DNA of 32,000 nt from Telmatocola sphagniphila (GCF_018398935.1 NZ_CP074694.1:5820001-5852000); one strand, 5' to 3'. Shown: positions 6,810 to 20,872, numbered from the stretch's first letter. Made by a program: numbers and translations. Notes: generated by a model not told the origin, from the sequence alone.

Positions 6810-7772
6810 TCATTCGTCGCGATTCTGAACGTACTGGTAGCCGAATCGGCCCTTAATGCAGAGATGGCCGTGAGTGACTTCCACATCCAGGGGCGAAGTC
6901 ACTTTCACGATCGAATTGTCCTGAACGTGTAAAGTCAGCGTGCAGCCTACGCCACAGAAGGAGCAGATGGTATCGGTCTGGGTCTGTTTGCTTTCATCCC
7001 AGGTGCCAGCGGCGCGCATGTCGAATTCGCTTTTGAACATGAGTGCACCGGTAGGGCAGACGCCGATACAGTTGCCGCAGTAGACGCAAGCTGAGTCGGG
7101 CAAAGGCACATCCGCTTCCGTCGAGATATGAGACTGAAATCCCCGCCCTGCAACAGCAATCGCGAACGTATTCTGCGCATCGGTGCCACAAGCTTCGACG
7201 CACTTATAGCAGAGAATGCACTTGGAGTAATCGCGAACGTATAAGTCGTTGTCGATCTTAACCGGAACCTGGGTCGTGCGGGCCTTCGTGCCATCGACGG
7301 CTTCTGCGTGATCGTGAGTTCTCGCAGATTCCTTTCGCGGCCCGTAGCGATCCGGCTTCGCGTCGTAGCGTTCGATGTAAGATTGGGCTTGCGGCGCGGT
7401 TGAGAGATCGACGGAAGAGCCGAGGAATTCCAATACCATTTTGCGGGCGAGCCGAACGCGCGGCGAATCGGTCTGGATGACCATCCCCGCTTCGATCTTG
7501 CGGGAGCAGGCCGGTACTAATGTCCGCGCCCCGGTCAATTCCACCACACATATCCGACAGACATTCACGGGAGTCAGATTTTCGAGAAAGCACAAAGTGG
7601 GCGTATCAATTCCCAACGAACGGGTCACGTCGAGAATAGTCGAAGTCTTGGGCGCTTGCACCGTTCGGCCGTCAATGGTGATATCCACCAGCTCGACCAC
7701 CGGTTCGGCGGGGGGTAACGGTATCCGCGTGGAAACGGGCGGAGCCTGAAACCAATAGCCGTCATTGCTCAT
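6810..7772 (-). CDS. formate dehydrogenase iron-sulfur module (NuoG/FdsA N-terminal-like: 2Fe-2S, 2x 4Fe-4S, FS0 4Fe-4S), encoded as a separate protein
   Basis: The Cys motifs are C-x10-C-x2-C-x13-C (2Fe-2S), CILCYKCVEAC and CVYCGNCIGVCP (ferredoxin-type), and CSFCGVGCTLTL...HLCIKG (Mo-bisPGD-family FS0 domain). The protein ends ...RFGYQYVQNRDE*. Its ATG overlaps the upstream stop (ATGA at 7769-7772). Confidence 0.9.
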   Translation of the reverse strand: MSNDGYWFQAPPVSTRIPLPPAEPVVELVDITIDGRTVQAPKTSTILDVTRSLGIDTPTLCFLENLTPVNVCRICVVELTGARTLVPACSRKIEAGMVIQTDSPRVRLARKMVLEFLGSSVDLSTAPQAQSYIERYDAKPDRYGPRKESARTHDHAEAVDGTKARTTQVPVKIDNDLYVRDYSKCILCYKCVEACGTDAQNTFAIAVAGRGFQSHISTEADVPLPDSACVYCGNCIGVCPTGALMFKSEFDMRAAGTWDESKQTQTDTICSFCGVGCTLTLHVQDNSIVKVTSPLDVEVTHGHLCIKGRFGYQYVQNRDE

Positions 7773-9634
7773 GGCTGACCTCGTTCCGCGAACAGACCCT
7801 TCAAGTTTTTCAACGCCGACTCGACTGCGCTCGAAGCCGTCTGGCCCAAACCGCAGATGGAAGCATCCCGCATGACCTGACCGATTTCTTTAAGAAGATT
7901 CAATTCTTCTTCGCGACTCACCAGCGGCTGCTGGCTCCTGAGCCTATGAAATAACTCTTCCTGGCGAACCGTTCCTACCCGGCAGGGGACGCACTGGCCG
8001 CAGGATTCAGCTCGGAAGAATTCGGCGATGCGAGTGAGGATGTCGGTCATATCGACGCGATCATCGAAGATGATAATCACGCCCGAGCCAAGCGTGGCGT
8101 TGGCGGCTCGGGTTCCCTCGAAGGTGAGTGGAATATCCAGCTGATCGGGGCCGACAAAGACCCCGGCCGCTCCGCCGAGCAGAATCGCTTGAATCTTCCG
8201 ACCTTCAGGTACGCCGCCCGCTATCTCAATCATCTGGCGAAGTGTTGGGCCGAAAGTCGTCTCGTAGACGCCAGGCCGGGCAACATGACCCGAGAGGCAG
8301 AACAGTTTAGGCCCCGTAGAACTCTCCGTACCGAGTTGGGCATAGGCTTTGCCGCCCTCTTTCAGGATGAGTGGGATATTGACCAGCGTCTCAACGTTAT
8401 TGATGACCGTAGGCTTGCCAAACACACCCTCTTGAACGGGAAAGGGAGGCTTATTGCGAGGCTCGCCGCGTTTTCCTTCGATCGAATTGAACAGGGCAGT
8501 TTCTTCCCCGCAAATATACGCCCCGGCGCCGCGACGAATCTCGATATCGAAATTCAAACCCGACTCAAGAATATTCTCGCCGAGAAAGCCAGCGAATCGG
8601 GCCAAGTCGAGCGCCAGAGCTAAACGCTTGCCCGCCAGGGGGTACTCGCCGCGAAGATAGAGGAAGCCTTTTTCGCAGCCGGTGGCCAGCCCGGCGATGG
8701 TCATCCCCTCGAGAACGGCAAACGGGTCGCCTTCCATCAGAAGTCGATCTTTGAAGGTTCCCGGTTCGGATTCATCCGCGTTACAGACCAGGTAGTGGGG
8801 CTTCGCCGGCGCTTTCGCGACAGCCTCCCATTTTCGACCTGTGGGAAAGGCCGCGCCGCCACGGCCCATTAACTTGGAATCAAGAACTTCGCGAATTACC
8901 CCTTCGGAACCGAGTGCGAGGGCCTGTTTTAGCCGGGCATAGCCTCCAGAAAGAATATAAGCTTCAATACTTTCAGGATCGATTTTGCCGATCCGCTTTA
9001 GGAGTCGCAGCTCCCGTGAACCGGACGGAGGGATAGATCGGCTCAGATTTTGAAACGGCTCATCCACCGGCCAAGCGTTCTGCTTCAATCCCTGAGTAAT
9101 TTCTTCTCCACTGGTGGGAGCCAAAGTAATACCACGTGGTGTCGTAGCCGCTTGCAAAGTCAGGGCAGCGGGAGCCCGCTCGCAAAGTCCCAGGCAAGGA
9201 CTGCGCTGCCAACTTCCTGAGCCTGAGGGGCCTAACGTTTTTTCCAAATCCTGGCAGAGGTTTTCGCCACCTTTAATCCGGCAGGCAATATCGTCACAAA
9301 CATGGACCACCGTAGAAGGCCGAGGGCTAAGGCTGAAGAGGTGATAGAAGGTGGCAACGCCGTAAGCTTCTGCCGGGGGGACAGAGAGTCGCTGGCAGAT
9401 GTAGTTGAGGGCGCCTTCAGATACCCAACCGATACGCCCTTGCACGGCATGGAAGGCCTCGATCAAGCGATGCCGTTGAGTTCGCGATTCCTGACCTCCT
9501 ACTAATGCAATTCGGCCTTCCTCGTTCAAGTTGCGTAGTCCGCCCATCCAGGCCGAAGGGGCAGGGCCGAGCAGCCCGTCGACGGCTTCGCGCTCCTGAG
9601 GACTCGCCGTATCACCATGAATGTGAAGATCCAT
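7769..9634 (-). CDS. NAD(P)H-binding flavoprotein subunit of formate dehydrogenase (NuoE-like + NuoF-like fusion; FdsG-FdsB / Fdh1B type)
   Basis: 621 aa. The N-terminal part is NuoE-like (VCDDIACRIKG..., SPCLGLCERAP). The rest is NuoF-like (GRGGAAFPTGRKWE, YLVCNADESEPGTFKDR, ESCGQCVPCRVGT, ICGLGQTA). Its start overlaps the upstream stop (TGATG at 9632-9636). Confidence 0.9.
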   Translation of the reverse strand: MDLHIHGDTASPQEREAVDGLLGPAPSAWMGGLRNLNEEGRIALVGGQESRTQRHRLIEAFHAVQGRIGWVSEGALNYICQRLSVPPAEAYGVATFYHLFSLSPRPSTVVHVCDDIACRIKGGENLCQDLEKTLGPSGSGSWQRSPCLGLCERAPAALTLQAATTPRGITLAPTSGEEITQGLKQNAWPVDEPFQNLSRSIPPSGSRELRLLKRIGKIDPESIEAYILSGGYARLKQALALGSEGVIREVLDSKLMGRGGAAFPTGRKWEAVAKAPAKPHYLVCNADESEPGTFKDRLLMEGDPFAVLEGMTIAGLATGCEKGFLYLRGEYPLAGKRLALALDLARFAGFLGENILESGLNFDIEIRRGAGAYICGEETALFNSIEGKRGEPRNKPPFPVQEGVFGKPTVINNVETLVNIPLILKEGGKAYAQLGTESSTGPKLFCLSGHVARPGVYETTFGPTLRQMIEIAGGVPEGRKIQAILLGGAAGVFVGPDQLDIPLTFEGTRAANATLGSGVIIIFDDRVDMTDILTRIAEFFRAESCGQCVPCRVGTVRQEELFHRLRSQQPLVSREEELNLLKEIGQVMRDASICGLGQTASSAVESALKNLKGLFAERGQP

Positions 9635-11559
9635 CAGGACCGCACTTTCTGGGGCTCAATGCGCACCGCGGCGGCTTTGAACTCGGCCGTGCCTGCTTTA
9701 GGATCGGTGAAGTCGATCGTCAGCAGGTTGGTGGCTACTTCGTCCGGAAAATGGAAGGTCATGAAAGTTAGTCCCGGCCGCAATCCCCGATCGATTCGGG
9801 CCGGGACTTCCAGGCTGCCGCGACGCGAGATCACTTTCACCAGATCGCCGTCATGCACTCCGAGAGTCTGGGCATCTTCGGGAGAGACGTCCAGCGTTTC
9901 GCCGCGACGCAGCGGCGATTGATAACCCGCGGTTTGCACGCCGGTGTTGTAGTCATCGAGCCGCCGACCAGTAGTCAGTCGATAGGGATATTCGGGGCTG
10001 AGCTTTTCATGCGGCGGGTCATGCTCGACGGGATTAAAAGCCACTCGGGGGCCATTCAAAGGTTGTTCCCAGAGACGGCTATGCAGGAACATTTCCCCGG
10101 GATGATTTTCATCGTAGCAGGGCCATTGCAGTCCGTTGTGTTTTTCCAATCGGGCATAACTCAGCCCGGCGTGTGCAGGACTCAAGGCGCGAACTTCGTT
10201 CCAGATGTCCTCACTCTTGGGTTTACCCCAATCGTGTCCCAGCCGGCGAGCCAGTTCGAAGAGGATATCGAGATCATCGCGAGCCTGGCCGGGTGGATTC
10301 AAGGCTTTTCGAACGCGCTGAACCCTTCGTTCGCTGTTTGTGACAGTCCCTTCGCTTTCGCACCAACCGGCAGCAGCTGGTAGCACGACTGTGGCCAGTT
10401 CCGCCGTCTTGGTCAGGAAGATATCCTGAACCAGGAGAAAATCGAGGCTTTCCAAGAGTCGTCGGGCTCGGGTTTGATCGGCTTCGGACTGGAGTGGGTT
10501 TTCGCCAATCACGTAAAGCGCTTGCAGTTCGCCATGCTCCATCGCCTCAAACATTTGCGTGAGGTTCAAGCCGCGTTTTGGGGGGATTTTGGCCCCCCAG
10601 TGTTTCTCGAACTTCAAGCGGAACTCATCGACTTCGACGTGCTGAAAGCCGGGCAATCGATCGGGCAGGGCTCCCATGTCGCCGCCGCCTTGCACATTAT
10701 TCTGGCCGCGAAGGGGATTCAGGCCGCAGCCATAGCGGCCGACTTTACCGGTCAACAACGCCAGATTGATCAGCGACAGCACATTATCGACGGCATTATG
10801 ATGTTCGGTTATGCCTAGGGTCCAGCAGATAATTCCTTTATCCGCTTTGGCGTACGTATGCGCCAGTTCGCGGATCACCCGGGCCGGGACGCCCGTTTCC
10901 CGCTCCGCATACTGCAGCGTGTAGGATTCGACAGCCTTTCGATATTCCTCGAACCCAGTGGTGGCGTGGTCAATGAACTGCTGGTTCTGTAATCCGGCCG
11001 CGATGATCTCGCGACCGACGGCATTCGACAAAGCAATATCGGTTCCGATATCCAGACCCAGCCACTGGTCGGCCCATTGCGTGGAACTGGTTCGACGGGG
11101 ATCGATGGCGAAGAGCTTGGCTCCGTTATGTATGCCCTTGAGGAGATGATGAAAGAAGATCGGGTGCGTCTCCCGGGCGTTAGAGCCCCAAAGGAGAATC
11201 ACCTCAGTCTCTTCGATTTCGCGGTAGGAATTGGTGCCGCCGCCCATCCCAAAGACTGTCGCCAGACCGACGACGCTTGGGGCATGTCAGGTGCGGTTGC
11301 AGCTATCGATGTTATTACTGCCAATCACCACGCGAGTAAACTTTTGAGCGATGTAGTTCATCTCGTTGGTAGTTTTAGAACAGCTGAATAACCCGTAGGC
11401 TTCAGGCCCCTGTTTTTCGACAACTCGCTGCAATCCCTGGGCCGCTCGGTCAAGCGCTTCTTCCCAGGTGGCGGGTCGTAATGAACCGTTTTCGCGAACG
11501 AGAGGAGTTGTCAGTCGGGGATAAGGTTTCTTCGGGGTTCTGTTGTTCATGTTCCACAT
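9634..11559 (-). CDS. fdhA: formate dehydrogenase catalytic (Mo/W-bisPGD) subunit, selenocysteine-containing; lacks the usual N-terminal Fe-S domains
   Basis: Track ORFs 11287..11559 and 9634..11247 share one frame and are separated only by a TGA (11287-11289). The readthrough product reads ...AQKFTRVVIGSNNIDSCNRT-U-HAPSVVGLATVFGMGGGTNSY..., colinear with E. coli FdhF around Sec140. Downstream motifs include GLNPLRGQNNVQGGGDMGALP. The product is 641 aa including Sec. An alternative ATG lies at 11550. Confidence 0.85.
11248..11289 (-). promoter_or_regulatory. UGA(Sec) codon plus bacterial SECIS hairpin
   Basis: The mRNA is UGACAUGCCCCAAGCGUCGUCGGUCUGGCGACAGUCUUUGGG. The outer stem is CCCAAG/UUUGGG and the inner stem is GUCGUC/GGCGAC (one G-U pair). 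The apical loop GGUCU sits at +22..+26 from the U of UGA. As I recall it, the E. coli fdhF SECIS has the same loop sequence at the same spacing. Confidence 0.75.
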
Positions 11560-11688
11560 CCGAAGTGAATTGATTCTCTATAAAGTCTAAATTAATTGTA
11601 GGTTCCTGACAGAGAGCGGACAATCAAACCGCTTCAGAGCGATACCTTTGAAAATCCCCTCCTTCCTTTTTTAACCGGGTGAGTACTG

Positions 11689-12516
11689 ATGACCCAGTCC
11701 GAAATCCCGGAAGGCCCTGTTCCCGAGTCGATCCAGACCCGAAAAATTGTTGCGATCCCCGCCGTCGGCACGGAGGAGGCCCGGATAGATCCGGTGGCCG
11801 TCGAGGCGCCGTTGGAGTTACGTATTAACGGACAGGCGGAAACCGTGATGATGCGAACGCCCGGCCACGATGAGGAACTGGTTCTCGGTTTCCTGTATGC
11901 GGAGAATGTGATATCGGAAATAGGCGATATCGTCGCGATGGAACGGCCGAATGCGGAAAATATCCAAATTATTGATGTGAAGCTCACCTCCACTCGCAAG
12001 TTTCAGGGAATGGATCGTCCCCTCTACAGCAATTCCAGCTGTGGAGTTTGTGGTAAGCGCTCTCTTGCTTCGCTGGAAGTGCACGGCCCGCGCCTGGAAT
12101 CGGATTTTCGTTTAAATCGCAATCTGTTGTGCCCCCTGCCCGGTCGGTTGCGGAAGAATCAAAAATTATTTAGCGAAACCGGGGGAGTTCATGCGGCCGG
12201 GCTCTTTAGTCCGGAAGGTTCGCTGGTCACACTTCGGGAAGATGTGGGCCGGCATAACGCGCTCGACAAACTGATTGGCTGGGCCTTAAGTGAAGGTCTG
12301 GTTCCACTCAACGAGTTTATTCTTCTCCTTTCGGGAAGAGTGAGCTACGAACTGATTCAGAAAGCTATCCGAGCCTCGATCCCAGTCGTGGCAGCGGTCG
12401 GGGCGCCCTCGACGCTAGCCATCGAATTGGCCGAGCAGTTCGGCATCACCCTCCTGGGTTTTCTGAAAAACGATCACTTCAATTGCTACTCGCACTCTTC
12501 ACGCATCGCTCTCTGA
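11689..12516 (+). CDS. fdhD: formate dehydrogenase accessory sulfurtransferase FdhD
   Basis: 275 aa. Motifs are SSCGVCGK and the signature DVGRHNALDKLIGW. It is divergently oriented from the FDH operon. Confidence 0.9.
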   Translation: MTQSEIPEGPVPESIQTRKIVAIPAVGTEEARIDPVAVEAPLELRINGQAETVMMRTPGHDEELVLGFLYAENVISEIGDIVAMERPNAENIQIIDVKLTSTRKFQGMDRPLYSNSSCGVCGKRSLASLEVHGPRLESDFRLNRNLLCPLPGRLRKNQKLFSETGGVHAAGLFSPEGSLVTLREDVGRHNALDKLIGWALSEGLVPLNEFILLLSGRVSYELIQKAIRASIPVVAAVGAPSTLAIELAEQFGITLLGFLKNDHFNCYSHSSRIAL

Positions 12517-12686: not shown

Positions 12687-15600
12687 ATGTTAAAAAAAAC
12701 AGTTGTCACTCTGGCGATCACCGCCGGTGCGGTTTCTACCGGGATGTATTGGCTGGGTAATCCCAGTCATGCTGAACCCCAAAAACAACTTGCAAGCAAT
12801 TCTGAAGCACGGGAGCCTCGCGAACCCCGGCAGGATGATCCTCTGAAAGCCACGGCCAAATTACCCATCACTCAGGTGGTGATGTTCAACAGCGGCGTCG
12901 GCTACTTCCAGCGCTCCGGGCCGGTCGATGGCGATGCCCGAGTCGAATTGTTGTTTCCAGCCTCCGGCATCAACGACATGATCAAAACGTTGGTCATCTC
13001 GGACAGTAAAGGCAAAATCACGCCTTTACGATACGACAGTCAGGAGCCGATTGAGAAGACACTGAAGAGTTTTGGAATCGACCTCAGCGGCAATCCCTCC
13101 TACGGTCAATTGATCAATCAGATACGCGGCGAAAAAGTCGAAGTGACCATGGGTAACACCGGGAATCTGCCCGCAACCATGCAAGGTACGATCATGGGCA
13201 TGGAATCGCAGATGCGCGGCGAGCCAGGTAAGCCTGCAACGGAAAAAGAGTTTCTGAATCTTCTCTGCTCGGAAGGGTTGCGCAATATTCCACTCGCGGA
13301 TATTCAGCGGGTGCGTTTCCTCAACCCGGTTCTCGAATCGGAATTGAAACGAGCTCTGGAAGTCGTTTCCATTGGCCATGATTCGCAGAAGAAAACGGTT
13401 CGCCTCGGATTTCGGGGCGAAGGGAAGCGGGACGTCAAGGTCAGTTATGTGGCCGAGCACCCGATTTGGAAAACGAGCTATCGCATTCGGCTGGATAAGA
13501 ACGGCAAAGCCAAAATGGAGAGCTGGGCTACGGTCGATAACACTTCCGACGAAGACTGGCAGGATGTGAAGCTGGTGCTGGTTTCCAGCCGGCCGATCAG
13601 CTACCAGATGGACATGTACGCTCCGCTGAATATTCCCCGGCCTATCGTGGAGCCGGAACTGTTCGCCTCACTTCGCCCACCTACTTACGGTGGCCCCATC
13701 GCCAGCGGTGGTAATGGGATATTCACCCAGCCGTTAACCAATCCCATATATGCGAACAATTCGATTCCATTGCAGAATGGTGGTATCGGAGGTGGAATAA
13801 ATGGAGGATTTCAGGGCCCGGGGAATCCGGGAGGACAGGGCGGACAACTTGGATTTGGCGGTGGTCAAATGGGTTTCGGAACCCAAGGCGGCTTTAATCT
13901 ACCGGCCAACAAATACCAGAACTTCGCCAATAATGAACAGGCGGCCGCCAATGGAAAGTTGAGTTATCAGGAGTTCGCCAACCGCCGACTTCAAGATAAC
14001 AACAATAAGGCAGCCAAGCCCAACCAGGCGGAGGTCCAGCAGGCGGCCCAGGTGGGCAGCATCATCTCCGATGTCGATCCTAAACTCATCGAAGCGGCTC
14101 TGGCCTCCTCCGAACTGGGGAATCCGTCCCGATTTGTGGTCGAAGAGAAGATTCGTCTTCCCCGTCAGCAAAGTGCGATGATTCCGCTGTTTGATCTGCC
14201 CTTGGAAAGCGAGCAGGTCAGTATTTACAATCCTCGCGTGCAGGCCAAGCACCCGCTGAACGGCTTGCGAATCAAAAATCCTACCAAACAATCTCTGATG
14301 CAGGGGCCCATCAGTATCGTCAGCGACGATCAATATGTGGGGGAATCCCGCATTCAGGATCTTCAGCCGGGCGAACAGCGGTTCGTCAGCTATGCCGTGG
14401 ATGTGGGCGTCGAAATCAAGCCGTATGATACGGTCAGCCCCAGCCCGACGATGACGGTATCGGTGAACAACAATCAACTCAGCGTGGGGTATCGCCTGCG
14501 TTCCACCCGCACGTACGCGATCAAAAACAATACCCCCGAAGATCGCGTGATCATCATCGAGCAGGCGCTCCGAACCGGCTGGCAACTGGTCGACGAAAAG
14601 AGTGCTTTGGAGACAACTCGCGATCTTTATCGATTCAAGGTTCCGGTCAAATCGGGGGAACTGGTCAAGTACGAAGTGAAAGAAGAACTGCCCAGGATTG
14701 ATCCCTTTGCCATTACCAAGCACACCAATTGGAATGGTTTTGCCACGACACTGGGACTGGATGTCTGGACCACCAACGAACGCGACCCGGAAGAGAAATT
14801 TTCCGTCCGCGTCGATAACCCGAACCTGATTGTCGTCACCCATAAAGATCGACGCAAGGTGACTTATAACATCGTCAATCGTTCCGATGTGGAACGCACG
14901 ATTGATCTCGAGCATTTCCTCCCGGCCGATCGCCAGATTATCGGGGAAATGAAGCCCGATCCGCAGAATAAGCTCAAATTCACGACTAAACTCGTGCTTC
15001 CCGCCTTGAAAAAGGATGTCGAGCCCAAACCGGTGACCTTCACGGTCGTTGAAGAAAACCGCGATACGATTCACGAGCCGTTCTCCCTGGTTGGCATCAC
15101 CCAGCGCGGGCCAGTCTCGGCTGTGCCCGCTCCGGCCAGCGTGGAAGATCTGCCACCCGCCCGCTTCATTACTCCTCTGGGAATTGAAGTCTGGCATCGC
15201 ACGGAAGTCCTGCCGGAAACCCTCGTCAGTGGCAAGTTCAGTAAGGGACTTTTCGACGCCTCCATCCATGATCGTCTGAAGCATGTGTACACAATTCGCA
15301 ACACCGCAGCCGCCGCTCGCACAATTATGGTGGAGCAAATTATTCCCGCAGGCTCGTCGCTGGCCGGGACTACACAAGTGGCTGGTCAAGGAGGTGCACG
15401 CAAAGAGTATGTCGTCGCCGTGGATGCGGGTAAGATCCAGGTTCAGGACAGTATTGTCGAAACGAAAGTGAAGCGTTCCTGGACCTTCGAACAGTTGTTG
15501 GCGATGCCGGAAGAGACTTTGAAGAGTTACACCAAGTCCGACAAACTGGCAAAAAATGTTCAGGAAGCTTTGGAAAAAGGTCTGGGCATGCTGACGGCGT

Positions 15601-15854
15601 TGCGAACTCTGGAAGCATCGTTGAAAGAGCAGGCGGCTGCGATCAAGTCGATCACCGAAGAACAGAAGCGTGTGACCGAAGCATTCGAAAAGCTGCCCAA
15701 TTCGACGCCTCTCTATAAGCGGTATCTGGAGAAGCTGGAGAAACTGGAAACCAGCCTTGAGAAATCGCAATCCAGCGTGAAAGAAATGGAAGAGAGCCAG
15801 AAGAAGCAAAAAGCCGAATACGAAGCCTATGTCAAGAAGTTGACGGCCGAGTAA
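12687..15854 (+). CDS. large exported DUF4139-like (MuiA-like) protein with a low-complexity insert, tandem C-terminal modules and a coiled-coil tail
   Basis: 1055 aa with GAGG 7 nt upstream of the ATG. The N-terminus is hydrophobic (VVTLAITAGAVSTGMYWL). Segments such as YVAEHPIWKTSYRIRLD...ATVDNTSDEDWQDVKLVLVSSRPISY and GPISIVSDDQYVGESRIQDLQPGEQRFVSYAVD resemble DUF4139 as I remember it. The family assignment is unverified. Confidence 0.85.
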   Translation: MLKKTVVTLAITAGAVSTGMYWLGNPSHAEPQKQLASNSEAREPREPRQDDPLKATAKLPITQVVMFNSGVGYFQRSGPVDGDARVELLFPASGINDMIKTLVISDSKGKITPLRYDSQEPIEKTLKSFGIDLSGNPSYGQLINQIRGEKVEVTMGNTGNLPATMQGTIMGMESQMRGEPGKPATEKEFLNLLCSEGLRNIPLADIQRVRFLNPVLESELKRALEVVSIGHDSQKKTVRLGFRGEGKRDVKVSYVAEHPIWKTSYRIRLDKNGKAKMESWATVDNTSDEDWQDVKLVLVSSRPISYQMDMYAPLNIPRPIVEPELFASLRPPTYGGPIASGGNGIFTQPLTNPIYANNSIPLQNGGIGGGINGGFQGPGNPGGQGGQLGFGGGQMGFGTQGGFNLPANKYQNFANNEQAAANGKLSYQEFANRRLQDNNNKAAKPNQAEVQQAAQVGSIISDVDPKLIEAALASSELGNPSRFVVEEKIRLPRQQSAMIPLFDLPLESEQVSIYNPRVQAKHPLNGLRIKNPTKQSLMQGPISIVSDDQYVGESRIQDLQPGEQRFVSYAVDVGVEIKPYDTVSPSPTMTVSVNNNQLSVGYRLRSTRTYAIKNNTPEDRVIIIEQALRTGWQLVDEKSALETTRDLYRFKVPVKSGELVKYEVKEELPRIDPFAITKHTNWNGFATTLGLDVWTTNERDPEEKFSVRVDNPNLIVVTHKDRRKVTYNIVNRSDVERTIDLEHFLPADRQIIGEMKPDPQNKLKFTTKLVLPALKKDVEPKPVTFTVVEENRDTIHEPFSLVGITQRGPVSAVPAPASVEDLPPARFITPLGIEVWHRTEVLPETLVSGKFSKGLFDASIHDRLKHVYTIRNTAAAARTIMVEQIIPAGSSLAGTTQVAGQGGARKEYVVAVDAGKIQVQDSIVETKVKRSWTFEQLLAMPEETLKSYTKSDKLAKNVQEALEKGLGMLTALRTLEASLKEQAAAIKSITEEQKRVTEAFEKLPNSTPLYKRYLEKLEKLETSLEKSQSSVKEMEESQKKQKAEYEAYVKKLTAE

Positions 15855-15873
15855 GTCCTTGGAACGAAAAAAC

Positions 15874-15903
15874 GAGAGCCGCGAGGGAATCCTCGCGGCT
15901 CTC
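15874..15903. terminator. bidirectional terminator hairpin between convergent genes
   Basis: GAGAGCCGCGAGG-GAAT-CCTCGCGGCTCTC is a perfect 13-bp stem. It is preceded by AAAAAAC and lies between the stops at 15854 (+) and 15920 (-). Confidence 0.8.
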
Positions 15904-15919
15904 GGCACTTTCCGTTCGA

Positions 15920-17728
15920 TCAATTCAAAAGCTGATCGAGTTCATCCACCATGCGGGCAAATTTTTTCAGGGCCGCTTCGACGGGTTCGGGAGTTTCCAT
16001 ATCGACCCCCGCACCGCGCAAGAGATCCAGCGGATCTTTAGAACTGCCGCTCTTCAGGAACCCCAGATAGGCATCCAGTTCTGATTTTCCGCCGTGCAGG
16101 ACCCGTTCCGAGAGGGCAATCGCCGCGCTCAGTCCGGTAGCGTACTTGTAAACGTAAAAGGCGCGATAAAAATGGGGGATTCGAAGACACTCCAGCGAGA
16201 GTTCTTCATCAAGGGTGAATTCCGGGCCGAAATAGGCATCTAGGAGTTTACGGTATTCGGCACGCAGCGTTTCCAGGGTCAACGGTTCGTTTTCTTCCGC
16301 CAGTGCGTGCGTCACCTTTTCGAACTCGGCGAACATTGTCTGGCGAACGATGGTTTTGCGAATGTCATCGATCTCCCGATTCAGATAGTAAGCTTTCTCC
16401 CGAGCGTTGCTGGCGGTTTTACGCAGCATCTCTCCCAGCAGCTGTTCGTTGAAGGTGCTGGCCACTTCGGCGACGAAGATCGTGTAGTTCGCGTACTGGT
16501 AGGGCTGATTCTTGCTCGAGTACCAGGTATGCATCGAGTGCCCGGCCTCGTGAGCGAGCGTGAAGATATGATCCAGCACATCCGGCTGATAGTTCATCAG
16601 GATGTAAGGATCGCTATCGTAGCAGCCGCTGGAGAACGCGCCACTGTGCTTGCCCTTGTTCTCGTAGCGATCGCACCAACGGCCTTTTAATCCTTTGGTC
16701 AGGGCGTCGATGTACTCACTTCCCAGAGGCTTCAAGGCCGCAATAACTTTTTCGACCCCCTCGTCCCAGGTGTTGCGAGTTTGCAGATCGCTCAAAATCG
16801 GAACGTACGTGTCGTACATGTGAATATCAGGCAGTTTCATTGCTTTGCGGCGGACTTGATAGTACTTATGCACGGCCGGAAGATAGTTATGGATGGCCGT
16901 CAGAAGATTGTCGTAGACGCTGAGAGGCACTTTATCGGGAAACAGCGACGCTTCCCGAGCCGAGGAGAAGTTGCGGACTCGTGCCTGATAGACATCCTGC
17001 TTGATGCTGCCCGCCAGGGTGGCCGCTAAAGTGTTAGCGTGGTCGTTGAACTCGCTGTAGTACTGATGGAAGGCGGTTTTGCGAACTTCCCGGTTTGGAT
17101 TTTCCAGACAGACGATGTAAGAACTGTGGCTCAGTTCGATTTTTTCGCCGGGGGATAGTTCGATCTCGCCGAATTTCAAATCGGCATCGGTGAGTTGATC
17201 GAAGACATTGCGCGGTGTCTGCGAAGTCTCGATCTGCATGGCCAGAATACGCTCTTCTTTTTCGCTCAGCGTATGTGGCTTATAGCGCACCAGTCGTTCG
17301 AGGGACAGCTTGTATTCCGCTAGGAGGGGGGACTTCAGATAATCCCCCAGGGTGGCGTTGGGCAGGTTTAGAATTTCCGGTCGAATATAGCTCGCCAGTT
17401 CGGCGGCCCGGCTGGCGACTCCGATGTACCGCGCCTTCATACCCTGGTAGTTCGAATTCGAAACATCTTCGGTTTCTTTCAGGAACGCATAGGTCCCAAT
17501 GCGGTCCCCCAAACGATCGAAGGCCGTGTCGAACTTCAGACATTCAGAGAGTAACTGAGCACTTTCCCCCAGCTTGCCGCGAAACTGGTTGTAGCCTTCC
17601 GCTTTCTTTTCGTAGTCTTCGAAGGTCTTTTCCCAGGCTGCATCGCTCTCAAAAAGACTGTTCAGATCCCAGGTATCTCCCACGGGAACTTCCGAACGCA
17701 GGGGCAGCTTTTTCGTTCCGCTCGACAT
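15920..17728 (-). CDS. pepF: oligoendopeptidase F (M3B family)
   Basis: 602 aa. It has the zinc motif HEAGHSMH and typical PepF length and N-terminal region (W.L..LF.......). Confidence 0.9.
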   Translation of the reverse strand: MSSGTKKLPLRSEVPVGDTWDLNSLFESDAAWEKTFEDYEKKAEGYNQFRGKLGESAQLLSECLKFDTAFDRLGDRIGTYAFLKETEDVSNSNYQGMKARYIGVASRAAELASYIRPEILNLPNATLGDYLKSPLLAEYKLSLERLVRYKPHTLSEKEERILAMQIETSQTPRNVFDQLTDADLKFGEIELSPGEKIELSHSSYIVCLENPNREVRKTAFHQYYSEFNDHANTLAATLAGSIKQDVYQARVRNFSSAREASLFPDKVPLSVYDNLLTAIHNYLPAVHKYYQVRRKAMKLPDIHMYDTYVPILSDLQTRNTWDEGVEKVIAALKPLGSEYIDALTKGLKGRWCDRYENKGKHSGAFSSGCYDSDPYILMNYQPDVLDHIFTLAHEAGHSMHTWYSSKNQPYQYANYTIFVAEVASTFNEQLLGEMLRKTASNAREKAYYLNREIDDIRKTIVRQTMFAEFEKVTHALAEENEPLTLETLRAEYRKLLDAYFGPEFTLDEELSLECLRIPHFYRAFYVYKYATGLSAAIALSERVLHGGKSELDAYLGFLKSGSSKDPLDLLRGAGVDMETPEPVEAALKKFARMVDELDQLLN

Positions 17729-19717: not shown

Positions 19718-19778
19718 GCCGATGTAACATCTACATCGGCATTCGGCCCGCATCGCGTGATGATTTTTTATTCATCAC
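19718..19778 (-). terminator. two hairpins downstream of the OYE gene (putative terminator region)
   Basis: GTGATGA-N8-TCATCAC (19757-19778) begins 12 nt past the stop. GCCGATGTA-ACATC-TACATCGGC (19718-19740) is a perfect 9-bp stem. Neither hairpin has a classic U-tract. Confidence 0.4.
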
Positions 19779-19789
19779 CCGACTCGCGC

Positions 19790-20872
19790 TCAACGTTTCA
19801 GCCAATGGCCGTACTGCACCGCGAGAATTTTCCCCGGTGTCTCGACGCCGAGCGTCTTCGCCGCGTGGTACGGCCAGTGCGGATCGCGCAAAAGTTCGCG
19901 CGCCAGTGTTACCATATCCACCTGCCCGCTGGCAATGGCTTTCTCCGCTTGAGCCGCCTCGGTGATCAGCCAGGAGGTCGTCGTCGGCAGGCTGACTTCC
20001 TTGCGAATTCGTTCCGCCGTGGGCAACATGAAGCCCGGACCCCAGGGAATTGCAGAAATATCCGGGGAATTGAAGCCCAGACTGGCATCGATCATGTCGA
20101 GTCCTTCGGCTTTCATCTTGCGAATCAGCTCAATCGATTCGTCGAGCCGAATGCCGCCCTCCACATAATCATTCACGCTCAATCGTGCCGCCAGAGGATA
20201 TTTCTCCGGCCAAACCGCGCGAACGGCTTTCAGTGTCTCCAGAATGAACCGGCCACGATTCTCCGCCGAGCCGCCATATTCATCGGTCCGCTTATTGGCG
20301 ATGGGAGACCAGAAACTCGAAGCGAGGTAACCGTGGGCGAAGTGCAGCTGCAGAAATTCGAATCCGGCGGTGAGAGCGTTCTTGGCCGCCGCGACGAATT
20401 TCTCCCGGATTTGAACGATATCCTCTTTGGTCATCGCTTTGGGTGTCACCGGCAGGTTGGCCCCGAAGGGTATGGCACTAGGACCAAGAATTTGCCAGGC
20501 TCCCTGTCCAGGCGTGAGATGATTGTCCCCTTCCCAGGGCTTGTTGGCACTCGCTTTACGCCCGGCATGGGCAATCTGAATGCCAGGGACAGCGCCATGC
20601 TTTTTGAGAAATTGAGTCACCGGCTTCCAGGCAGTCACCTGAGACTCGTTGTAAATTCCGGTATCGCCCGGGCTGATTCGCCCTTCTGGTGAGACGGCGG
20701 TCGCTTCCGCGATCACCAGAGAGGATCCGCCGATCGCTTTGCCTCCCAGATGGACGAGATGCCAATCGCTGGGCACGCCCTCGGTGGCAGAGTACTGGCA
20801 CATCGGGGATACCGCGATGCGATTGTGGAAGGTGACATCTTTGATCTTCAGAGGTTCAAACAGTGCGACCAT
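19790..20872 (-). CDS. NADH:flavin oxidoreductase, Old Yellow Enzyme family (YqjM/NamA-like)
   Basis: 360 aa with GAGGAG 5 nt upstream of the ATG. The N-terminus LFEPLKIKDVTFHNRIAVSPMCQYSA and the segments HLVHLG, GIQIAHAGRKAS and LHFAHGYL support the call. Confidence 0.9.
   Translation of the reverse strand: MVALFEPLKIKDVTFHNRIAVSPMCQYSATEGVPSDWHLVHLGGKAIGGSSLVIAEATAVSPEGRISPGDTGIYNESQVTAWKPVTQFLKKHGAVPGIQIAHAGRKASANKPWEGDNHLTPGQGAWQILGPSAIPFGANLPVTPKAMTKEDIVQIREKFVAAAKNALTAGFEFLQLHFAHGYLASSFWSPIANKRTDEYGGSAENRGRFILETLKAVRAVWPEKYPLAARLSVNDYVEGGIRLDESIELIRKMKAEGLDMIDASLGFNSPDISAIPWGPGFMLPTAERIRKEVSLPTTTSWLITEAAQAEKAIASGQVDMVTLARELLRDPHWPYHAAKTLGVETPGKILAVQYGHWLKR

Follow-up and report, generated by a model that had tools for sequence, protein, structure and literature searches.

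A predicted NAD-linked formate dehydrogenase (FDH) whose alpha subunit is divided between two genes is encoded in the genome of Telmatocola sphagniphila (Gemmataceae, Planctomycetota), within a stretch of 32,000 nucleotides (nt) (GCF_018398935.1 NZ_CP074694.1:5820001-5852000) that is referred to here in its entirety as the window. Its three genes, all on the minus strand, follow one another head to tail in the order catalytic molybdenum or tungsten (Mo/W) module, NuoE-NuoF fusion (NuoEF) and iron-sulfur (Fe-S) protein. The proximal cluster FS0, which sits on the pterin-cofactor chain in every solved Mo/W-bis(pyranopterin guanine dinucleotide) (bisPGD) structure matched in this study, is placed here on the Fe-S protein, which is encoded last. 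As judged from its sequence, the locus probably specifies a formate:NAD(P)+ oxidoreductase of the NuoEFG-related (Fds/Fdh1) kind that is soluble, cytoplasmic and non-bifurcating and is made of three polypeptides; known enzymes of this kind use two or three. A first-pass annotation of the window had placed the split at the FS0/Mo-bisPGD junction, with a NuoE+NuoF fusion of 621 amino acids (aa) in the middle and a 320-aa protein bearing one 2Fe-2S, two 4Fe-4S and the FS0 motifs at the end, and the Pfam and NCBIfam domain map of the three proteins agrees with the split that it claimed; its coordinates and sequence details were confirmed as well. Two features described below were absent from that annotation, namely that the catalytic gene encodes a selenoprotein with a hairpin resembling a selenocysteine insertion sequence (SECIS) and that the His-ligated [4Fe-4S] cluster of FdsA is missing. 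The features of the locus are as follows, in window positions.

9634 to 11559, minus strand: Mo/W-bisPGD catalytic module (Mo module), the C-terminal "half" of FdhA/FdsA; 641 aa (translation, Pfam, TIGR01591).
11287 to 11289, minus strand: in-frame TGA, selenocysteine (Sec) codon 91, in the active-site motif NNIDSCNRT-U-HAPS(V).
11258 to 11274, minus strand: SECIS-like hairpin, GUCGUC-GGUCU-GGCGAC (RNAalifold consensus of 66 unique sequences).
9632 to 9636, minus strand: TGATG, 1-nt overlap of the Mo-module stop and the NuoEF start (open reading frame [ORF] ends).
7769 to 9634, minus strand: NuoE-NuoF fusion, diaphorase subunit; 621 aa (Pfam, TIGR01959, motif positions).
7769 to 7772, minus strand: ATGA, NuoEF stop codon overlapping the Fe-S start codon by 4 nt (ORF ends).
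6810 to 7772, minus strand: Fe-S "half" of the alpha subunit, HoxU/NuoG-N-terminal-like with an FS0 domain; 320 aa (Pfam, NCBIfam, alignment to Rhodobacter capsulatus FdsA [RcFdsA]).
11689 to 12516, plus strand, divergent: fdhD (FdsC type; PF02634, E = 1e-70; NF001943, 273.9 bits against a cut-off of 269).

The position of the break agreed between the Fdh-alpha model, RcFdsA and Escherichia coli FdhF. Positions 1-52 of the Fdh-alpha model TIGR01591 fall on residues 268-319 of the 320-aa protein, and positions 52-672 fall on residues 14-634 of the Mo module, which passes the cut-off of this model (688.6 bits; cut-off, 666.25) although the first 51 model positions are missing from it. Likewise, the 320-aa protein aligns to RcFdsA 25-307 (E = 8e-44), and the Mo module aligns in a PDB search to RcFdsA 308-932 and to Escherichia coli FdhF 58-687; it had been expected to start near FdhF residue 60. 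The small protein ends in ...HLCIKGRFGYQYVQNRDE*, and the Mo module begins MWNMNNRTPKKPYPRLTTPLVRENGSLRPATWEEAL. By these alignments, the alpha subunit is cut between two adjacent canonical residues, with nothing lost or duplicated. An in-frame TAG lies 18 nt 5' of the Mo-module ATG, and an N-terminal extension of this chain is therefore impossible. Two other accounts of the break were considered and rejected. A split intein or other protein ligation was discounted on inspection, there being no extra sequence at either side of the break, and a mosaic origin of the halves was discounted after the Mo module and the FS0 domain alone were both found to match best the FdhF of the hydrogen-dependent CO2 reductase (HDCR), a weak test given the short domain.

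The 320-aa protein (QVL31744.1 and WP_213495936.1, 100% identical) carries a plant-type 2Fe-2S domain (PF13510), two Fer4 motifs (CxxCxxCxxxC) and the Molybdop_Fe4S4 domain PF04879 at residues 265-317. The [2Fe-2S] ligands are C61, C72, C75 and C89, those of the two [4Fe-4S] clusters are C185/188/191/195 and C229/232/235/239, and those of FS0 are C270/273/277/305, followed by Lys307. With 16 ligands present, the cofactor set of this half is complete for an on-path chain running from FS0 through two [4Fe-4S] clusters to the [2Fe-2S] cluster. All 16 Cys residues were invariant among 12 homologues and again among 60, and the Lys after the last FS0 Cys was kept in at least 90% of those 60. We take Lys307 to be the counterpart of FdhF Lys44 on the pterin-to-FS0 path. 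In contrast, the motif HPLDCLTCAANGDC of the His-ligated [4Fe-4S] cluster of FdsA is replaced by SSVDLSTAP-QAQSY, and it is equally replaced in all eleven homologues aligned with the 320-aa protein. One further, low-GC homologue (P0269) runs past FS0 into the Mo-module N-terminal motif RLTKPLIK... and looks fused, although it breaks off after 295 aa. It too lacks the His/Cys ligands of this cluster (A4), and A4 has therefore probably been lost outside the split clade and Fdh1A as well.

The 641-aa Mo module contains only the MopB pterin-binding domains PF00384 and PF01568. Its active site consists of Sec91-His92 and Arg284-Gly-Gln (RGQ motif), and Sec/Cys-His together with RGQ is the active-site signature of class I FDHs (PMC8808070). 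Neither FS0 nor any other Fe-S motif was found in this chain by Pfam and by an inventory of its Cys residues; there is no CxxCxxxC, and the only Cys residues (60, 87, 245, 278, 400 and 481) form no cluster motif. Its sequence shows a chain predicted to hold a Mo- or W-bisPGD with Sec91, His92 and Arg284, and no Fe-S cluster. The best PDB matches of the Mo module are all FDHs (HDCR FdhF, archaeal FdhA and E. coli FdhH). A maturase is encoded next to the enzyme, fdhD specifying the sulfurtransferase that FDHs require for maturation of their Mo/W-bisPGD cofactor. The Fds system also has an FdhD-type maturase (FdsC); an fdhD homologue was present in 30 of the 83 relative loci described below, at variable positions. 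The catalytic gene is poorly represented in public annotation. GenBank QVL31746.1 is a 522-aa fragment of it named "molybdopterin-dependent oxidoreductase," with the first 90 codons unannotated and the Sec codon missed, and gene callers likewise broke the Mo gene at the Sec codon in the related contigs that were looked up.

A selenoprotein was called on an in-frame UGA at the catalytic position and on a stem-loop that begins some 11-20 nt further downstream and has a GGUC-type loop at its apex, all of which are found in the catalytic gene. The TGA occupies the homologous codon in 70 of 70 loci with the active-site region (relaxed motif scan, window included) and in 68 of 68 under a strict active-site scan, and the reading frame of the relatives is about 70% identical at the amino acid level on both sides of it. 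RNAalifold, run on the 66 unique sequences, placed a GGUCU loop on a 6-bp stem, the whole element occupying nt 16-32 after the U of UGA. Within this hairpin, the third-codon positions at nt 18, 21, 27 and 30 do not vary at all and nt 24 varies in a single case, while those flanking it (9, 12, 33, 36 and 42 onward) show all four bases. Furthermore, the pair 20/28 is U-G, U-A or C-G and never C-A, and both changes alter the amino acid. When the 68 nt after the UGA were folded as a single sequence, the fold was no better than shuffles (z = 0.46), and the SECIS call rests on the comparative data. These provide good evidence that the hairpin is a bacterial SECIS, and the distance from GGUC to UGA is presumably the same as in the E. 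coli fdhF SECIS. Rfam gave no match at gathering thresholds anywhere in the 32-kb window.

The 621-aa middle protein joins NuoE (PF01257) to NuoF (PF01512, SLBB and PF10589; TIGR01959 nuoF, 460 bits). It has the NuoE-like [2Fe-2S] (N1a-type) ligands C113, C118, C147 and C151, a flavin mononucleotide (FMN)/NAD(H) site (GAGAYICGEE, residues 369-378) and the N3-type [4Fe-4S] ligands C545, C548, C551 and C594, which is the set of NuoF-like and NuoE-like sites expected of an NAD-linked FDH. The chain stops 6 residues past PF10589, the N3 domain, and its PDB matches end at residues 609-618 of 621; no Fer4 or C-terminal ferredoxin domain was found in it by Pfam scan or PDB alignment. Since NuoEF ends just after the N3 domain, the extra clusters of the bifurcating HylB/HydB proteins are absent, and the enzyme is read as non-bifurcating because they are absent.

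To establish how widely the arrangement occurs, a set of genomes comprising one per GTDB species was scanned with the 320-aa protein as query. At least 595 loci in these species-representative genomes carry a relative. The best 80 of them are 63-75% identical to the query and come from nine phyla, closed chromosomes included: Acidobacteriota (43 loci), Chloroflexota (15), Eremiobacterota (8), Planctomycetota (7), Actinomycetota (2) and, with one locus each, Dormibacterota, Myxococcota, Verrucomicrobiota and Methylomirabilota, together with one unclassified locus. Gene order was determined by tblastn with the three window proteins in the best 80 loci and three others (83 in total). The order Mo, NuoEF, Fe-S on one strand was found in 73 of the best 80 and in the three further loci, so that the comparison across phyla returned the same three-gene order in all nine. 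Of the seven exceptions, five are cut at a contig end and two, both Chloroflexota (L020 and L068), have no Mo gene within the flanking sequence searched. Two contigs that were looked up, a Terriglobia metagenome-assembled genome (MAG) and a 280-kb metagenome contig, have the same order, and the arrangement occurs in short-read, long-read and closed-chromosome assemblies. This recurrence in dozens of genomes is far beyond chance, and the split architecture is not rare but the standard form in a large clade.

The operon is also conserved in its details. NuoEF and the Fe-S gene, which the overlapping stop and start codons indicate to be translationally coupled, overlap by 4 nt in 48 of 56 intact loci (ATGA in 37, GTGA in 11), which is in line with the tight coupling proposed from TGATG and ATGA in the window. 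The Mo/NuoEF junction was measured in 49 loci and is more varied, with 7 overlaps, 30 gaps of 0-40 nt, 10 of 41-400 nt and 2 of more than 400 nt. Pairwise distances of the three proteins across 44 intact operons were correlated (r = 0.85, 0.71 and 0.72; Mantel test, 0 of 999 permutations), the value for the Mo module and the Fe-S protein being 0.71; the three genes have therefore been inherited as one unit. The suggestion of a functional operon, as opposed to a rearrangement scar, is borne out by the shared order, the conserved 4-nt overlap, the invariant ligands and these correlations. Some loci depart from the compact form. In six Chloroflexota loci (L013, L017, L018, L021, L025 and L059), 0.7-3.5 kb of additional sequence follows the Mo gene, ahead of NuoEF, and about 1 kb is inserted between NuoEF and the Fe-S gene in a Thermoanaerobaculia locus (L076). 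In several long-read MAG loci ("contig_", MFD; L003 near 3690, L006, L013, L016, L024, L059 and L070) the Mo frame is broken early, and L024 shifts frames. These breaks look like assembly indels, not pseudogenes; that in L003 resembles a single-base indel.

All of the 120 best homologues of the 320-aa protein are 268-392 aa long and have the same domains, and none contains PF00384. No fused relative above about 50% identity was found, either among these best homologues or in a search of 1.84 billion representatives, which returned mostly fragments and frameshifted translations and no close fused sister group. The split thus seems ancestral to the clade. Three proteins of 838-976 aa (P0226, P0229 and P0231) were rejected as fused ancestors, being NuoG/MopB-like and without an active-site Cys or Sec. 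Their C termini look NuoE-like by eye, and they presumably represent a non-catalytic architecture related to the Fe-S half. Two proteins of about 350-378 aa (P0190 and P0252) were rejected as split forms, since they are ordinary fused FdhA ended at the Sec codon. A protein of 1405 aa (P0132) consists of two tandem units, each a NuoG-like N terminus with MopB, neither having an obvious Sec/Cys active-site motif.

The gene sequence Mo, NuoEF, Fe-S stands as it was first described, although the term "reversed order" used for it fits less well: by gene content it is a cyclic permutation of fdhA (Fe-S.Mo) followed by fdhB (NuoEF), in which the canonical E-F-U diaphorase order is kept. Had the operon been duplicated in tandem, with subsequent deletion of the leading Fe-S part and of all that follows the second one, both the order and the cut would have arisen in one step. 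This may be the simplest route; no intermediates were found among the relatives examined. The split unit may later have spread horizontally among soil phyla. The mean pairwise identity of the three proteins across relatives is 62-71%, and the window operon is similarly close to a Terriglobia operon (74/68/77% identity) and to an Isosphaeraceae operon (75/64/71%), which together point to such spread.

The closest known enzyme in architecture and predicted cofactors is Fdh1AB of Methylobacterium extorquens (PDB 7E5Z and 7VW6), while the closest in sequence is FdsABG. Fdh1AB is a soluble NAD-linked FDH that likewise has a one-chain, Nqo1/2-like diaphorase of the NuoE-NuoF type and likewise has, on the alpha side, FS0, two [4Fe-4S] clusters plus a single [2Fe-2S] one, without a His-ligated cluster. 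This enzyme (MeFDH1) is an alpha-beta heterodimer, with three [4Fe-4S] and one [2Fe-2S] cluster in Fdh1A and with FMN, [4Fe-4S] and [2Fe-2S] in the single chain of Fdh1B (PMC10869683). The predicted inventory of the window enzyme is the same, the on-path clusters being kept and the off-path, His-ligated one absent. However, Fdh1A is a single 989-aa chain, against 320 plus 641 aa here; it is a tungsten enzyme with Cys436 instead of Sec; the genes are named fdh1A and then fdh1B, unlike the order Mo, NuoEF, Fe-S; and the Fe-S half matches it with a lower score (116 bits) than it matches FdsA (154-164 bits). FdsABG(D) of R. capsulatus and Cupriavidus necator (PDB 6TG9 and 6VW7) is the best sequence match of the Fe-S half and is colinear with both halves. 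It shares the on-path electron chain, an FdhD-type maturase (FdsC) and NAD+ as acceptor. It differs in that FdsA is one chain, FdsG and FdsB are separate and unfused and there is an FdsD subunit, whereas here alpha is split and NuoE and NuoF are fused; in the additional FdsA cluster at the dimer interface (His117/Cys121/Cys124/Cys130), which is absent here; and in an active-site Cys386 where the window enzyme has Sec91. The Fds gene order is fdsGBACD. In both the Fds and the Fdh1 enzymes alpha is a single polypeptide of about 950-990 aa, whereas here two genes on either side of NuoEF encode it. Since FS0 does not lie on the pterin-binding chain, the window enzyme is described as an architectural variant of the Fds/Fdh1 type and not as a plain member.

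Parts of the arrangement have counterparts elsewhere. The order E, F and then a U- or G-like Fe-S protein is shared with HoxEFU of the NAD-reducing [NiFe] hydrogenases and with NuoEFG. HoxU is likewise a separate small Fe-S chain, and FdsA resembles HoxU over its N-terminal 250 residues (PMC7171172). However, HoxU has no FS0 domain and the catalytic partner of HoxEFU is a hydrogenase, while NuoG keeps a MopB-like domain fused and has no Mo. In HylCBA-FdhA (FdhF2) of clostridia and Desulfotomaculum, the NuoG-like HylA and a Sec-containing catalytic chain are likewise separate and NuoEF dependent; in contrast to the window enzyme, the catalytic FdhA there retains its own Fe-S clusters, HylB bears two additional [4Fe-4S] clusters, HylC is not fused to HylB and the complex is bifurcating (PMC5736913). 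A precedent for a MopB catalytic subunit made of two polypeptides is FwdB/FwdD of formylmethanofuran dehydrogenase, but it is cut at the opposite end and FS0 stays on the pterin-binding chain. That cut lies between domains III and IV. We take the clusters kept on the HylCBA-associated FdhA to include FS0 as well, and to our knowledge all described members of the superfamily that have FS0 carry it on the pterin chain.

If the three chains act as one enzyme, the FS0 domain of the 320-aa chain would dock on the Mo chain as it is arranged in FdsA and FdhF, rebuilding domain I in trans and putting Lys307 between the pterin and FS0. Electrons would then pass from formate to Mo, FS0, the two [4Fe-4S] clusters, the [2Fe-2S] cluster, N3, FMN and finally NAD+. 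In R. capsulatus FDH the path runs through bis(molybdopterin guanine dinucleotide), A1 (FS0), A2, A3, A5 ([2Fe-2S]), B6 and FMN, with the His-ligated A4 off the path at the dimer interface (PMC7171172). As this interface cluster is missing, an alpha-N/alpha-C/beta protomer that does not dimerize through it is likely. The selenoprotein gene would be translated first, its UGA being recoded through the hairpin 16-32 nt downstream, and the neighboring FdhD would sulfurate the Mo/W-bisPGD cofactor. In aerobic or facultative bacteria of soil and peat, the enzyme is likely to oxidize formate to CO2 and thereby yield NADH.

Several points weigh against this assignment. Complex formation, docking of FS0, substrate, nucleotide specificity and metal are all inferred. 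An AlphaFold2 model of the 320-aa protein made with 60 homologues had a mean predicted local distance difference test (pLDDT) score of 59, only the 2Fe-2S domain being confident, and nothing was concluded from it. Neither selABCD-type Sec-insertion genes nor a tRNA-Sec gene lies in the 32-kb window, and their presence in the genome is assumed. Telmatocola is aerobic. Sec-type FDHs are described as rather oxygen-sensitive (PMC7171172), which sits oddly with such a host and makes the prevalence of the enzyme in soil lineages noteworthy. Lastly, in the PDB the NuoF part matches subunits of the Bfu family best (9bov_B, NfnB and HydB; 375-414 bits), against 368 bits for C. necator FdsB and 324 bits for R. 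capsulatus FdsB. This last point would favor an electron-bifurcating or -confurcating FDH of the Bfu/HylABC type that uses NAD(H) and ferredoxin, as would the separate NuoG-like chain of HylCBA-FdhA (PMC5736913). We consider such an enzyme improbable, because the fusion ends just past N3 without the two extra [4Fe-4S] clusters of HylB/HydB (PMC5736913). Furthermore, neither a ferredoxin-like gene nor a gene for a further subunit was found in the operon among the window ORFs and by domain scan, and the predicted cofactor set equals that of the non-bifurcating Fdh1AB. Most of the carriers, too, belong to soil lineages, which we take to be largely aerobic.

A different objection is that the genes encode independent units, with NuoEF and the 320-aa protein forming a HoxEFU-like diaphorase for another partner, FS0 surviving as an N7-like remnant and the Mo module working alone or with another carrier. 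HoxU-type proteins do exist as separate subunits, and the NCBIfam HoxU model (238 positions) matches the 320-aa protein with E = 4e-38, which falls short of its cut-off; in complex I, the N7 cluster illustrates that a domain resembling FS0 may be retained where there is no catalysis (PMC7171172); and the spacer DNA in some Chloroflexota and the two loci without a Mo gene in the flank also fit separate functions. Nevertheless, independence is hard to reconcile with a Mo module that has no Fe-S cluster and so needs an external one beside the pterin, with a break that is exact to the residue, with invariant FS0 ligands and a conserved Lys307, or with the covariation of Mo and Fe-S protein distances, and it appears about as improbable as bifurcation. 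That the Mo module belongs to another MopB enzyme, for instance an assimilatory nitrate reductase with NAD(P)H as its donor, is very improbable. The NasC and NasA models do match it strongly (445 and 351 bits), but the respective cut-offs, 1100 and 1000 bits, lie far above these scores whereas that of Fdh-alpha is passed, and the Sec-His and RGQ signature of class I FDHs (PMC8808070), the adjacent fdhD and best PDB matches that are all FDHs speak for an FDH. Finally, the split could stem from misassembly, from a recent rearrangement that left a scar or from decay into a pseudogene, given that the catalytic gene is broken in GenBank and by gene callers and that the Mo gene is frameshifted in several long-read MAG loci. 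The annotation break, however, sits at the Sec TGA and not at the FS0/Mo junction, and an artifact would not recur in the same order in three types of assembly from nine phyla, with such mean identity, invariant ligands and conserved overlaps and with no fused form among the closer relatives. The chance of such an artifact is negligible. The reading of the locus as a three-chain FDH is therefore retained.

The first-pass annotation knew of no description of this architecture and allowed that the split order might already be common and characterized. Common it is, with at least 595 loci, although no characterization was found. Database names are generic ("(2Fe-2S)-binding protein," "2Fe-2S iron-sulfur cluster-binding protein," "predicted molibdopterin-dependent oxidoreductase YjgC" and "NAD(P)H-dependent oxidoreductase subunit E"), and neither the Fe-S protein nor the NuoEF fusion reaches the cut-off of any NCBIfam model. 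No published description of the split was found in full-text literature on the dimethyl sulfoxide (DMSO) reductase superfamily, in a 2026 FDH review or in work on ForCE, RcFDH and MeFDH1, a coverage that mostly leaves out subscription journals. The structural oddity is clean and widespread, and the selenoenzyme is unannotated in major soil phyla; the chemistry is not new. A large and strongly conserved clade that supplies FS0 from another protein offers a natural experiment on how far the pterin-to-FS0 electron step tolerates a subunit interface, on the assembly and maturation of an enzyme with FS0 on a second chain, and on gene cutting and cyclic permutation inside an operon. It also comprises an unnamed NAD-linked FDH, with Sec in every locus examined, in Acidobacteriota, Chloroflexota, Eremiobacterota, Planctomycetota and other soil lineages, whose catalytic gene is cut at the Sec codon in public annotation and whose partners are generically named. 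This bears on one-carbon turnover in soil, on the selenium need of the carriers and on FDHs for CO2 reduction.

It is doubtful that the split and the selenoprotein-first order are an adaptation rather than a neutral accident. If they were, failure of UGA decoding under selenium shortage would free ribosomes 1.6 kb before the next gene, and polarity would then stop synthesis of the Fe-S/flavin module, which is reactive with NADH and O2. No truncated 380-aa Fe-S stump, such as a fused FdsA-type alpha subunit would leave, could form a dead-end diaphorase. The catalytic module could mature apart, its cofactor being inserted, and sulfurated by FdhD, before it attaches to a preassembled diaphorase bearing FS0. 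In that case, this would be the first MopB enzyme with its proximal cluster on the electron-transfer partner, and abundant soil phyla would have a selenium-dependent, NADH-yielding formate oxidation.

Upstream of the Mo-module gene is a divergent intergenic region of 129 bp, which holds a weak promoter match found by consensus scan only:

11595 to 11623, minus strand: sigma-70-like promoter match, TTGTCC-17-TACAAT.

The scan gave 4 matches in the region against 2.3 expected. Downstream, a squalene/phytoene synthase family gene (PF00494; 5838-6761, minus strand) begins 48 nt beyond the end of the FDH operon and shares its strand. Nothing resembling a terminator was seen between them, and there is a weak promoter-like match at 6789-6760. 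Cotranscription is possible but looks coincidental. Beyond fdhD, the plus strand encodes a 1055-aa protein (12687-15854) with a weak DUF4139 match below the cut-off, a Gly/Gln-rich center and a Lys/Glu-rich tail that is possibly coiled-coil; antisense to it is a TTG-start ORF of 674 aa (13899-15923, minus strand) that is probably spurious. ORFs also overlap on opposite strands at 19757-20692 (plus) and 19790-20872 (minus). Only the minus-strand ORF has a family match (PF00724, Old Yellow Enzyme-type NADH:flavin oxidoreductase), and the plus-strand one is probably not a gene.

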